Virus record (IMG/VR): IMGVR_UViG_3300040801_004562
Location: 1-64,000 of that record
Length of the DNA: 64,000 bases
Origin: a virus
Direction: 5' to 3' (one strand)
Numbering within the stretch: position 1 is the stretch's first letter; every line of letters starts with the position of its first letter. Made by a program: the position numbers and the translations under genes. The notes under the pieces were generated by a model that was not told where the DNA came from, made no database searches, and saw nothing but the letters and a program-made list of their open reading frames with translations. This document shows, piece by piece, positions 49,589 to 59,864 of this stretch.

Positions 49589-50530
49589 ATGAGCCCGAGT
49601 ACAAAGACTATCCTGGAGAAGGCCGATATGGCGGTTGCCGATCTGGTTTCCAACGGCGGCTACCTGAACCCGATGCAGGCGAACACGTTCATTCGGATGA
49701 TGATTGAACAGCCCACCCTGCTGAATGAAATCCGCGTGGTTCCTATGAACGCGCCGACGATGGAGATCAACAAGATCGGCTTTGCCGACCGGATCCTTCG
49801 TCGCGCTCCTGCCAGCGGCACCGCCCTTTCTGCAAGTGACCGCAGCAAGCCCTCCACCGACAAGGTGGAACTCGCGACGAAAGAGATCATCGCCGAGGTG
49901 CACATTCCGTACGACGTCCTGGAGGATAACATCGAGACCGGGCGCCTGGAAGACACCATCATGGCGCTGATTGCCGAGCGTTCTTCGCTGGACCTGGAAG
50001 AGCTGCTTCTTCAAGGCGACCTCGGCTCAGGGGACAGTTACCTTTCCCTGATGAACGGGATGCTGAATCAGGCGCAGTCCCACGTTGTCGATTTTGTCTC
50101 TGTCCAGCCTACGATCACCAAAGCGGTTTTCAAGGCCGGGCTGAAAACCATGCCCAACAAGTACCTCCGCAATCGGTCCGCGATGCGTTTCTACGTGTCC
50201 CCCCATGCGGAGATTGAGTATGCCGACAGCCTCGCCAACCGTGAAACTCCGTTCGGCGATACCAAGATCACCGGGTGGACCCCGAACTTTGCGTATGGAG
50301 TGCCTGTCAAGGCGGCTGCTTTGATGCCGAATGACAAGTACCTGTTCACATGGCCGAAGAATTTCATTCTGGGTATCCAGCGGAAGATTATGATCGAGAC
50401 CGATCGCGACATCCGTGCCCGAGTGCTGATTGTCGTCCTGACCATGCGGATCGACATCAAGTACGAGGAGGAAGATGCCGTTGTGAAGTGCCTCGGCCTG
50501 AATGTTGGTAACGTTTCCACCACAACGTAA
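49589..50530 (+). CDS. major capsid protein (HK97 fold, XkdG-like)
   Basis: GGYLNPMQANTF, LEDNIE, DLEELLLQGD, PKN.I.G. Confidence 0.88.
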   Translation: MSPSTKTILEKADMAVADLVSNGGYLNPMQANTFIRMMIEQPTLLNEIRVVPMNAPTMEINKIGFADRILRRAPASGTALSASDRSKPSTDKVELATKEIIAEVHIPYDVLEDNIETGRLEDTIMALIAERSSLDLEELLLQGDLGSGDSYLSLMNGMLNQAQSHVVDFVSVQPTITKAVFKAGLKTMPNKYLRNRSAMRFYVSPHAEIEYADSLANRETPFGDTKITGWTPNFAYGVPVKAAALMPNDKYLFTWPKNFILGIQRKIMIETDRDIRARVLIVVLTMRIDIKYEEEDAVVKCLGLNVGNVSTTT

Positions 50531-50553
50531 TTCGCAGTAGCGGAGGTGAATAG

Positions 50554-50853
50554 ATGTCTTTGCCGAAAGTGACACTGCTCGGAGCCCCTGGAAATACGTA
50601 CACGATCGCCTACGGTACCGGTACCTATGAGTTCACCGCAGGGGTCACCCGGAAGGTTCCAGTACCGATCGCCCTCGAAGCGAGAAAACGGAAGACACGG
50701 GACGGTCGGCCTATGTTCGACATTTCCATGCCTGCCACCATTCTTGACGAGGCTCGGGCTGAAACCAAGGTACGGATTCCCAAGAAGGCGAAAGCCGCCA
50801 GTGAAAAGCAGACTGCACCGGCAGCGCCTCAACAGACCAAGTTAGAGTTGTAG
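50554..50853 (+). CDS. hypothetical head-associated protein
   Basis: Position after MCP; RBS GGAGGT. Confidence 0.6.
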   Translation: MSLPKVTLLGAPGNTYTIAYGTGTYEFTAGVTRKVPVPIALEARKRKTRDGRPMFDISMPATILDEARAETKVRIPKKAKAASEKQTAPAAPQQTKLEL

Positions 50854-50855
50854 CC

Positions 50856-57783: not shown

Positions 57784-58755
57784 ATGAGTTTGTTGATCAC
57801 TCCGGCTTACACGACCGGATCGGTTCCAGGGTTCGCAGGTGCCACCGGCCTGCTGCAGACGATCGTTGCCTACGTGACCGGTGCTCCAGGTACTCCCGGT
57901 CGGGACTGGACCGTGGAGATGAACCGGGACATCACCGACAACGTTGGAAACCCGATTGTTACCTCGCCGCAGTTGAAAGAGGTGATCCTGTCCAATACTG
58001 GAATTTCTGGGCTGGAGAACATCATAGTGGCGATGCGGGAGTACCAATACCCGTCGAACTCGGAATGGGGAATCGAGCTGAATGGCCACGTTGTCGTTCC
58101 AAGCGGCTGGAATGCTGATGCTGCAGCCACGCATAACAAGATAGGCTGGGATGCTGACCGTAAGCACTGGAAAGACCTCCCGCACGTTCAGGCTGCTGAT
58201 CAGCAGATGGACTACTGGATTTATTCGACCCAGGAGTTCATTGGGTTCTGTGTCCGTGTGGGGACGTCCTACTTCCAAGGCTACCTCGGAAACGGTGCCC
58301 GCCTTGGAACTCCGTCCGAGTACCCGAATCCGCTTTACATCGCAGGATCTGAAGTCGGGAATATTTCGTATCAGGCGGGAGGAAACGGACCAGTCCGGCC
58401 GAAGGATAACACGTATTTCCTTGTTGATCCAAATGGCGCTTTTCGATCCGGAACAGACTGTGAAGTCCTGCCGATGCAGTTGGCTCCGATGTACACGGAC
58501 AACACGCAAGTTGATGTGGCTCCAAACGGTGCGCTTGTCCTCTCCCCGGTTTATGTCACCACGTCGCAGATTTTAGCCTTCCAGCTATGGAATACGTTCG
58601 CTGTGAGAGTGATGGCCCCGCAGCCAGAGAATTACTACGACGACATCAACGGATTGCGATTCCGAATCTGGCCGCAGGGCAAGAACGACTACAATTACGA
58701 CTTTATGGCGTTCTACGAGATTGATGCCGGGTATCTGACCTCGACGACCGTTTAA
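57784..58755 (+). CDS. tail tip/virion structural protein
   Basis: After TMP; YLG...TPSEYPNPLYIAG. Confidence 0.7.
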   Translation: MSLLITPAYTTGSVPGFAGATGLLQTIVAYVTGAPGTPGRDWTVEMNRDITDNVGNPIVTSPQLKEVILSNTGISGLENIIVAMREYQYPSNSEWGIELNGHVVVPSGWNADAAATHNKIGWDADRKHWKDLPHVQAADQQMDYWIYSTQEFIGFCVRVGTSYFQGYLGNGARLGTPSEYPNPLYIAGSEVGNISYQAGGNGPVRPKDNTYFLVDPNGAFRSGTDCEVLPMQLAPMYTDNTQVDVAPNGALVLSPVYVTTSQILAFQLWNTFAVRVMAPQPENYYDDINGLRFRIWPQGKNDYNYDFMAFYEIDAGYLTSTTV

Positions 58756-58766
58756 GGAGAATTCCG

Positions 58767-59864
58767 TTGCTGCTGGATTACGTTACATACACGAACTTGA
58801 CCGGATGTTCTGATTTCTTCAACAAGCTTCGCCTCTGGGCTGTATCTAAAGGGTGGACCCAAGAGGAGTGGTTGGAGAATGTGACTTGGGGAACGTCTCC
58901 TTATGGTTGGAAGACAGATTCAAGAGCGGATTTTCTTCAGCTCTCCAAGACCGGCTATGGGACTCAGAATTTGATCGCTGCTATTTCCTCTATGATAAAG
59001 GAGGATTATCCGTCGTGTAGCCTTGCCATCTGTATGCGGAGCCAGACTGCGTACGAAACATCCTCTAGCAAGCATCCGATGAACCAGAACCCGCTGGTTG
59101 GAATGATAAGTTCGCTAACTGCGGACAGCTTGTTTTATCAAGGAGTAAATAATGCTTGTGGCGGTCTTGATCTCACCGCGTCGGATAACATCCCACAAGC
59201 GTGGTTTTTTGCGGGGCCACACTGGATTTGTGCCGTCGCTAAAATGAGTGAAGAGTTCTGTCAGATGATGCACTTCGGGTCGTTTGAGATGTTTGAAGAC
59301 AACCCGTCTCAGGGCCAGTGTTTCGGCATGACCACCACTGTTTATGGTCCTGGTTCTTATGAGTACGATACAAGTTGGAAGACTGGATGGGAGCGCCGTC
59401 TCTTCTTTACCACCCCCTTTTCTTCCGGGAAGAAGAGTGGATTCAGCTACTACACGAACCACGGACTCGGGTTTTACTACTTCAACCGTGCGTCGATTGC
59501 TCCGTACGGAACGAATTACATTTACCATCGCGACAACTGCCACGTTTACTTTGGGGATTACTGGTCCGCATCGTCCGGAGGGAATGAGCTGCTTGGCGTT
59601 TCTGGGGCAGTTCTTTCGAACCACTTTTCAGCAAAGCGACCAATGATCAAGCCGATTTTTGCCATCCAACGTCCTGCTGATAGCGTTTGGGTTCCTGTTT
59701 TCAAAGCTCCTGTTTGGTGCCTAAATACTGCGGGGCTTGAAATTGGACAGCAGCTTGAGCAGGACGGATCGAAGTACCTCGTATTTCCGTTCCCGACGAT
59801 TTATACCCCGCAGGGATACGCCTTTTGTATTGATGACGGCACCCTTACCACGACGACGGTTTAA
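58767..59864 (+). CDS. virion structural protein (paralog 1)
   Basis: Shares MLLDY, LSKTGYGTQNLI, WFFAGPHWIC, QMMHFGSFEM with next gene. Confidence 0.75.
   Translation: MLLDYVTYTNLTGCSDFFNKLRLWAVSKGWTQEEWLENVTWGTSPYGWKTDSRADFLQLSKTGYGTQNLIAAISSMIKEDYPSCSLAICMRSQTAYETSSSKHPMNQNPLVGMISSLTADSLFYQGVNNACGGLDLTASDNIPQAWFFAGPHWICAVAKMSEEFCQMMHFGSFEMFEDNPSQGQCFGMTTTVYGPGSYEYDTSWKTGWERRLFFTTPFSSGKKSGFSYYTNHGLGFYYFNRASIAPYGTNYIYHRDNCHVYFGDYWSASSGGNELLGVSGAVLSNHFSAKRPMIKPIFAIQRPADSVWVPVFKAPVWCLNTAGLEIGQQLEQDGSKYLVFPFPTIYTPQGYAFCIDDGTLTTTTV

Follow-up and report, generated by a model that had tools for sequence, protein, structure and literature searches.

Threonine-tailed virion proteins of an uncultured phage: candidate acceptor tags for phage-encoded O-glycosylation

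Introduction

Several proteins encoded in the virion module of an uncultured phage, represented by the IMG/VR viral contig IMGVR_UViG_3300040801_004562, end in short runs of threonine (Thr), and this locus hence raises the question of what a common C-terminal tail may do for proteins as different as a capsid subunit, a head-tail adaptor and a tail tube. The stretch analyzed here, hereafter the window, comprises the first 64 kb of this 98,252-bp contig, the completeness of which is estimated by CheckV at about 80%. A preliminary description of the window, drawn from its letters alone, had listed six such C-termini and had proposed that they act as a portable tag, placed at the C-terminus to accept sugars from the glycosylation machinery of the phage. 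The comparative analysis reported here supports this proposal, since tails and phage glycosyltransferases (GTs) come and go together across relatives, and we put at roughly 80% the probability that phage-encoded enzymes O-glycosylate the virion, with the Thr tails as their acceptor tags.

Precedents for such a modification come from the mycobacteriophages, in which, according to two reports, capsid and tail-tube subunits are modified at their C-termini by GTs of the phage (PMC12363180, PMC12582341). A literature search returned no description of Thr-tailed virion proteins, of glycosyltransferase family 27 (GT27) in a bacteriophage or of mucin-type O-glycosylation in a phage. To our knowledge, experimental proof of glycosylated phage particles is limited to a few mycobacteriophages.

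Results

Threonine tails in the virion module

The six C-termini of the preliminary description match the sequence exactly (Table 1), its labels for the major capsid protein, the adaptor and the tail tube agree with PHROG assignments, and the two further ends that it had singled out, the tail-less end of a structural paralog and the tailed end of a small open reading frame (ORF) far upstream, were likewise verified. The codon mixing that it had reported is also present, with all four Thr codons (ACC, ACG, ACA and ACT) used in the tails and in proportions resembling those of the rest of the genome. The contig encodes another two tagged tail proteins just beyond the window end, and the tagged virion proteins of this phage number eight or nine. 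A Thr run of at least three within the last 10 residues is found in seven of 125 called genes; shuffling residues within proteins (2000 shuffles) yields 0.24 such tails on average and four at most, and internal Thr runs of at least four residues number zero in the genome.

In the major capsid protein the tail is a short extension beyond the conserved fold, and a solved structural homolog, sought in order to place the capsid C-terminus, was not found. The tail tube is homologous to the solved YSD1/Chi tail tube (6xgr/8vhx, E-value 2e-17). The 54-residue ORF that follows the adaptor is a real gene, because it has a strong ribosome-binding site (GGAGGTG, 5 nt upstream) and nine tailed BLAST homologs (E-values down to 3e-20), all nine of them lying directly after the adaptor gene and all nine ending in Thr/Ser tails. 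Three consecutive phrog_687 genes (57784-60973) follow the tape-measure gene, two of them tagged and one untagged, the last two being mutual paralogs.

Distribution of the tails among relatives

A search with the capsid protein identified 80 related viral loci; a DNA search with the virion module returned distant capsid matches only. In one part of the capsid family, capsid, adaptor and tube all bear Thr or Ser/Thr tails of very different lengths, and in the rest of the family the same three proteins end where the conserved fold ends. The tail is therefore an appended extension, because tail-less homologs stop at the conserved fold. Tail-less capsid homologs terminate at ...VVK(x)xNxG, and tail-bearing ones add a linker and 3-11 Thr; in tail-bearing relatives, the adaptor homologs terminate with a stretch of 5-25 Ser/Thr residues, and tail tube homologs carry Thr tails of 5-20.

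Seventeen whole relatives were fetched and their genes called with a custom codon model, giving 18 records with the contig under study. Tail-bearing genomes encode 3-7 tailed proteins, all of them in the virion module, and tail-less genomes 0-1. The 63 tailed proteins collected across 15 genomes have Ser/Thr runs that measure 3-33 residues, with a median of 12, and the run either closes the protein or is followed by one or two further residues (A, V or AA, for example); the tails of the phage studied here are among the shortest of this set.

Gene content associated with the tails

All proteins of the 18 records were clustered, and the clusters were ranked by their distribution between tail-bearing and tail-less genomes, blind to function. 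Only two non-structural families proved to be confined to tail-bearing genomes, the divergent G028 included, and absent from all tail-less ones, and Pfam searches conducted after the ranking identified both as GTs: a 422-residue GT4-type GT-B and a 335-residue GT-A, both encoded beyond the window end (Table 1). Apart from structural genes of a close clade, no non-GT gene family in the clustered records co-varies with the tails.

In a set of 50 related records, both GTs are present in seven relatives (G004, G006, G009, G012, G021, G022 and G028) and in the contig of origin, and the GT-B was found in a partial tail-bearing record (G002). Searches of the 15 tail-less records, seven of them 90% complete or better, detected neither GT. 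The co-occurrence test was limited to tail-bearing records long enough to be assessed, in two of which (G021 and G022) tails had been scored first and GT content only later; for the GT-B, present in 9/9 tail-bearing and 0/15 tail-less records, a Fisher test gives a raw p of 8e-7 over rows that are non-independent. In a capsid tree built from sequences with their tails trimmed off, five changes of tail state can be placed, two of which fall on branches with good support, and GT presence tracks every change.

The tail-less relative G007 illustrates this association at close range. Its capsid protein is 74% identical to the one studied here, its capsid, adaptor and tube are all devoid of tails, and both GTs are absent from its contig, which extends for 40 kb past the capsid gene. 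The syntenic slot of the GT-A is empty in this genome, where the genes that flank the 335-residue GT in the phage studied here adjoin each other. Co-occurrence of tails with GT genes in related phages, which the preliminary description had named as a way to check its proposal, is thus borne out: no relative lacking the enzymes retains tails, bar a weak capsid end in G016 and G017.

The converse search, with a profile of the 422-residue family, yielded 74 viral loci. In 46 of these, some of them from phages with a capsid of an unrelated family, one or more ORFs ending in a tail of at least four Thr lie on the same strand at a distance of no more than 10 kb. The tailed ORFs near GT-B loci comprise 75 on the forward strand and two on the reverse strand, and control loci totaling 484 kb contain no such ORF. 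The 335-residue family is co-present in 27 of 37 GT-B-bearing records, and in 10 of 11 among those at least 90% complete; the lone exception is explained by a contig that stops 3.8 kb past the GT-B gene, before the position of the GT-A, which sits 4-8 kb downstream in seven other genomes. A homolog of the capsid protein studied here went undetected in 22 of 23 GT-B-bearing records, and all eight records fetched from those without such a homolog encode tailed proteins (2-7 each), among them a major head protein from another family, phrog_29. Tag and enzyme pair are therefore not confined to one phage lineage but move between lineages. Members of phrog_687 with Thr tails also occur in unrelated GT-bearing phages, the genomes displaying the feature range from 37 to 61% in GC content, and the GT-B gene is located directly after the tail module.

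The two conserved glycosyltransferases

When a profile of the 335-residue family was compared with PDB sequences, polypeptide N-acetylgalactosaminyltransferases (ppGalNAc-Ts) were the best matches (T10 at an E-value of 8e-10, followed by T9, T7, T12, T1, T4 and T2), in an alignment that passes through the DxH motif and a GGGEN stretch. An AlphaFold2 model based on a 40-sequence alignment has a mean predicted local distance difference test (pLDDT) score of 94.8, and among the matches listed by a Foldseek search against the PDB (ranks 1-50) all are GT27 ppGalNAc-Ts, with E-values down to 8e-16, template modeling scores up to 0.72 and sequence identities of 14-19%. All 40 family members aligned share D109, H111, H240 and the G214-G215-E216 triplet; the counterpart of H240 in PGANT9 is the His of VGH, and a variant of the Gal/GalNAc-T motif, I-Y-G-G-G-E-N, aligns to iWGGE in T10 and PGANT9. 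In GT27 enzymes, the DxH motif and a third His provide the Mn2+ ligands, and the Gal/GalNAc-T motif reads WGGEN (PMC4202792); D109/H111/H240 and the GGE triplet of the phage family correspond to these metal ligands and to this motif, respectively. The profile and the model thus argue for a predicted GT27-type GT-A catalytic domain, which would transfer its sugar to Thr or Ser. As far as we know, the ppGalNAc-transferase family has been known only from eukaryotes.

The phage enzyme lacks a ricin-type lectin domain, its 335 residues ending in helices after the catalytic domain, with no second domain in either the model or Pfam. It also lacks a membrane segment (maximum 19-residue Kyte-Doolittle average of 0.94), and no GT of this phage has one. 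Among 1.8 billion cluster representatives, the family comprises about 125 representatives at E-values below 1e-30, none of them carrying an informative name. Fused forms exist (P0122, 601 residues; P0125, 740 residues), in which some 280-300 extra residues precede the ppGalNAc-T-like domain, and in the contig studied here an HNH endonuclease gene is inserted directly upstream of the ppGalNAc-T-like GT.

The model of the 422-residue enzyme (pLDDT 92.8) displays a two-Rossmann GT-B fold, the nearest structures of which are MshA, BshA, GlgM and PimA (E-values of about 1e-12). An E322-x7-E330 motif in its C-terminal domain is invariant in 37 sequences, and its Pfam Glycos_transf_1 match misses the curated threshold (21.7 bits versus a cut-off of 26.4). 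By its modeled fold this enzyme is a GT4-type retaining GT-B, and by its Pfam score a divergent one. Translated searches (tblastn) with the two core GTs gave no match in 50,697 GenBank phage records.

Accessory sugar genes, neighboring features and host

The contig encodes five GT-like genes in total, two of which are conserved with the tags. The preliminary description had assigned the role of partner to a sugar gene cluster at 12333-18591, which includes a methyltransferase, WecB, a short-chain dehydrogenase/reductase (SDR) epimerase, a PIG-L deacetylase and a 503-residue GT. This assignment does not hold for the core of the system, the conserved partners being the two GTs beyond the window end. 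Homologs of the 503-residue GT occur in the tail-less G032, G023 and G024, and the other genes of the cluster are singletons or patchy in distribution; given this GT in tail-less phages and a variable cluster, the latter is therefore an accessory glycan-tailoring module at most. The WecB and epimerase genes (13752-15790) are found in only some tail-bearing relatives, the epimerase also in the tail-less G023. A sugar aminotransferase was likewise invoked for the pathway; such a gene exists, but lies outside the named cluster (Table 1), and members of its protein cluster are encoded in G000, G004, G006 and the tail-less G023. Within the cluster, no convincing plus-strand gene was called in a 650-bp gap (15790-16444). 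A second glycan-biosynthesis cluster, located beyond the window, encodes a Glyco_trans_1_2 GT, a weak GT1-like protein, two hexapeptide acyltransferases and a GFO/IDH/MocA oxidoreductase. These accessory sugar genes are read as lineage-specific glycan tailoring, or as serving another purpose.

Table 1. Tagged proteins, glycosyltransferases and sugar genes on the viral contig (positions 1 to 64,000 are the window).
Feature	Length (aa)	Coordinates	Strand	Assignment	C-terminus or remark
WecB-type UDP-GlcNAc 2-epimerase		13752-14843	+	PF02350, E 1e-87	
NAD-dependent epimerase/dehydratase		14840-15790	+	PF01370, E 6e-52	
PIG-L-type deacetylase		16444-17070	+	PF02585	
GT-B-like glycosyltransferase	503	17080-18591	+	weak GT47/GT1 matches	
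Orphan ORF	74	24605-24829	+		...ETTTTVTV
DegT/DnrJ/EryC1-type sugar aminotransferase		32267-33430	+	PF01041, E 1e-82	
Major capsid protein	313	49589-50530	+	phrog_1623, E 9e-105	...GLNVGNVSTTT
Head-tail adaptor	195	50856-51443	+	phrog_477 Ad1, PF20557	...STTTTVLVTPTTTTTI; two Thr runs
Small conserved virion-module protein	54	51459-51623	+		...YPLTTTTTAG
Tail tube	180	52893-53435	+	phrog_807	...SWFTTTTTV
Structural protein	323	57784-58755	+	phrog_687	...GYLTSTTV; directly after tape-measure gene
Structural protein paralog	365	58767-59864	+	phrog_687	...DDGTLTTTTV; clusters with 59876-60973
Untagged paralog	365	59876-60973	+	phrog_687	...YAFRIA; internal contrast
gpJ-like central tail protein	878	contig 63956-66592 (window part 63956-64000)	+	PF13550 Phage-tail_3	...PPTTTTEPPPTTTTTV
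SPRY-domain protein	292	contig 66775-67653			...LKLTTTTV; beyond window
GT4-type GT-B	422	contig 67712-68980		weak Glycos_transf_1 match	beyond window
Second glycan-biosynthesis cluster		contig 76581-84724 (L161:14581-18761, L162:777-4724)			beyond window
GT-A	335	contig 83717-84724		Glycos_transf_2, E 4e-10	beyond window

The plus strand carries nearly all genes of the contig. Whether the orphan ORF at 24605-24829 belongs to the tag system is uncertain; it has no family match and no homolog among the 17 fetched relatives. It is one of several small ORFs in a region (24001-28000) of unusually strong GC skew (0.41 and 0.29, compared with about 0.05-0.1 elsewhere). Upstream of this region, an 11-bp tandem repeat (ACCATAGAGTT, 4.6 copies, 23439-23489) lies within a gene-poor stretch (22674-23554). 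Two AAA+ ATPases (8748-10337 and 33475-34965) and one GHKL-type ATPase (28994-30544) are encoded among replication genes that include a Toprim primase, a helicase, RecA and a PD-(D/E)XK nuclease, and no transfer RNA gene was found in the window.

The tail tube resembles those of Chi/YSD1-type phages of Gram-negative bacteria, and five related contigs from metagenome-assembled genomes (MAGs) were binned as Desulfobacteraceae, Thermodesulfobacteriota or Deltaproteobacteria, the sole host hint that bins provide. The hosts of tagged phages probably include Gram-negative bacteria.

Discussion

What was observed here is a set of conserved tags, the strictness with which they co-occur with two GTs, and the folds and motifs of these enzymes. 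In the mechanism proposed to join them, exposed proteins of the particle would bear a short C-terminal linker followed by a Thr or Ser/Thr run, the tagged set comprising the capsid, the adaptor, the small head-tail protein, the tube, the proteins encoded after the tape measure, the central tail protein and the SPRY protein. In the cytoplasm of the infected cell, the soluble 335-residue GT-A would place a first sugar, probably an N-acetylhexosamine from a UDP-sugar, on the Thr hydroxyls, and the conserved 422-residue GT4-type retaining GT-B would add the next one. Lineage-specific genes may then vary the outer glycan, a role that in this phage would fall to three more GTs, WecB, the SDR epimerase, the DegT aminotransferase, the GFO/IDH/MocA oxidoreductase, two hexapeptide acyltransferases, the PIG-L deacetylase and the methyltransferase. 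The presumable outcome is a mucin-like brush of sugars on head and tail. In its more specific form, in which unrelated phage lineages run their own mucin-type O-glycosylation, with portable poly-Thr tags on which a lectin-less relative of the ppGalNAc-Ts initiates glycans that a GT4 enzyme extends, the proposal is one towards which we lean, with considerable reserve.

Several points weigh against interpreting the tails as glycosylation tags. The support is a comparative association, and a sign test alone cannot reach significance on the contrasts at hand (two well-supported ones, five on the best tree). Among the 74 GT-B loci, 28 have no tailed ORF within 10 kb, although the virion module of these phages may lie farther off, as it does in G028 and G009. 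The capsid proteins of G016 and G017 (L030 and L032) end in ...GLTATGTTTY in genomes that lack both GTs, in a clade nested among tail-bearing phages; this end may represent a weak tag that is decaying or vestigial. Lastly, the glycosylated state of the tags, the initiating GT, the identity of the sugar and the surface exposure of the tails are matters that we only infer, and the order in which the GTs act is a guess, the GT-B being an equally possible initiator.

Other explanations can be sought in the tails as such, or in different partners for them. The tails might be docking or assembly peptides, forming a strand of beta-branched Thr residues that joins a neighboring subunit or is bound by a decoration or lectin-like protein, in which case the two GTs would serve elsewhere, for instance on host surface glycans or DNA. 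The tails of this phage, short and framed by hydrophobic residues (L/F-TTTT-V), could well form a beta strand, and the recurrence of one motif on many different proteins is what a common binding partner would produce; the runs of relatives, however, span 3-33 residues, mix Ser with Thr, contain Pro/Ala spacers and end in variable residues, and are in this respect unlike a specific motif. The tails, moreover, co-vary with no family other than the GTs, and do so even over unrelated capsid families. Docking peptides hence fit the data poorly, and we regard them as unlikely. It is less likely still that the tails act as hydrophilic bristles, free of any modification, that keep the particles from clumping, with the GT pair merely linked to them in a mobile neighborhood. 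Physical linkage to the tail genes does exist, given the placement of the GT-B directly after the tail module, but the tags are spread on head, connector and tail genes over some 18 kb, and the distance that separates them from the GTs in G028 is about 70 kb, so that simple hitch-hiking is improbable; in addition, G007 has lost the tails of capsid, adaptor and tube together, and the GTs are absent too.

A different modification of the tails seems about as improbable as unmodified bristles. Threonine is a phospho-acceptor, and the preliminary description had suspected a kinase in the window as a modifier; no protein-kinase family was found there, however, and the candidate (28994-30544) turned out to be the GHKL-type ATPase. 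Glycosylation by host enzymes would leave unexplained the need for phage GTs in every tail-bearing lineage, and it is these two GTs alone that track the tails. We give hardly any credence to a feature acting at the nucleic acid level, such as an RNA or DNA signal made of ACN repeats at gene ends, or a product of slippage. The varying length of the runs among relatives has suggested a contribution of triplet slippage to length variation, but the runs mix all four Thr codons in genome-like proportions, the feature persists over the whole GC range recorded, and the runs are always in frame and C-terminal, with the strand asymmetry noted above (2 versus 75). Codon mixing and strand asymmetry led us to reject a nucleic acid signal; a scan for terminators and promoters between 47 and 64 kb remained at background.

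Acceptor tags for phage-encoded O-glycosylation, the reading that we prefer, can be set beside several known systems. Virion glycosylation has reportedly been described for the mycobacteriophages Che8, Corndog and Myrna by Freeman et al. in 2023, in Cell Host Microbe 31:1216. Che8-type phages, according to the accounts cited above, likewise encode their own GTs and involve the C-termini of capsid and tube; here the position of the tag is what is seen, on these two proteins and on six or seven others, so that two modified proteins in the Che8-type accounts compare with eight or nine tagged ones. Unlike the tags described here, the Che8 capsid (...NKTGS) and tube (...YSDGS) end without a Thr run, and no BLASTP match better than an E-value of 0.1 connects Che8 gp108-110 with the five GTs of this contig. 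The hosts of Che8-type phages are actinobacterial, in contrast with the Chi/YSD1-like tube and the Desulfobacterota-type MAG bins of the present group. With dissimilar GTs and Che8 C-termini devoid of Thr runs, homology to the Che8 system was rejected.

The mucin-type O-glycosylation of animals and protists, carried out by GT27 enzymes, shares with the 335-residue enzyme the features of the catalytic domain (DxH, a third His and the GGGEN motif), and its acceptors, such as mucin repeats, are likewise low-complexity runs dominated by Thr. Its enzymes, however, carry a ricin-type lectin domain and a membrane anchor and operate in the secretory pathway, whereas the phage enzyme lacks both and would act in a cytoplasmic setting. 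In streptococci and staphylococci, GtfA and GtfB glycosylate serine-rich repeat adhesins in the cytoplasm. The logic is similar to that proposed here, with soluble GT-B (GT4) enzymes acting on Ser/Thr-rich tracts before assembly or export; the adhesins, however, display long internal repeats rather than short C-terminal virion tails, and GtfA is absent from the 50 best-ranked structural matches of the 422-residue GT-B.

A further parallel is provided by immunoglobulin (Ig)-like decoration domains, such as T4 Hoc and those of phrog_807 tubes, which are likewise a surface decoration, non-essential in appearance, of the same proteins, but consist of a protein domain rather than of the glycan presumed here. 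The tail-less G007 encodes a 325-residue tube with an extra inserted domain (L010:13091-14068), compared with the 180-residue tube with a Thr tail of the phage studied here, and Ig-like domain and glycan tag may represent alternative decorations; in L014 and L020, the extra tube domain and the tail are both present.

Should the proposed function of the tails be correct, uncultured phages with glycosylated virions would be widespread, among them ones that probably infect Gram-negative bacteria, and a simple signature, consisting of a C-terminal Thr run and a conserved GT pair, would make it predictable from genomes. Any virion protein could be enrolled by the gain of a Thr tail, providing a general and programmable means of coating particles with sugar, and the compact combination of tag and enzyme pair would offer a way to glycosylate chosen proteins in the bacterial cytoplasm. 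The enzyme put to use by phages would share its shape with the one that starts mucin glycosylation in animals, and a branch from prokaryotic viruses would also stand beside the family of these animal initiators. For the phages themselves, a glycan coat bears on the stability of the particle, on its adhesion to polysaccharide matrices and on how it is recognized.

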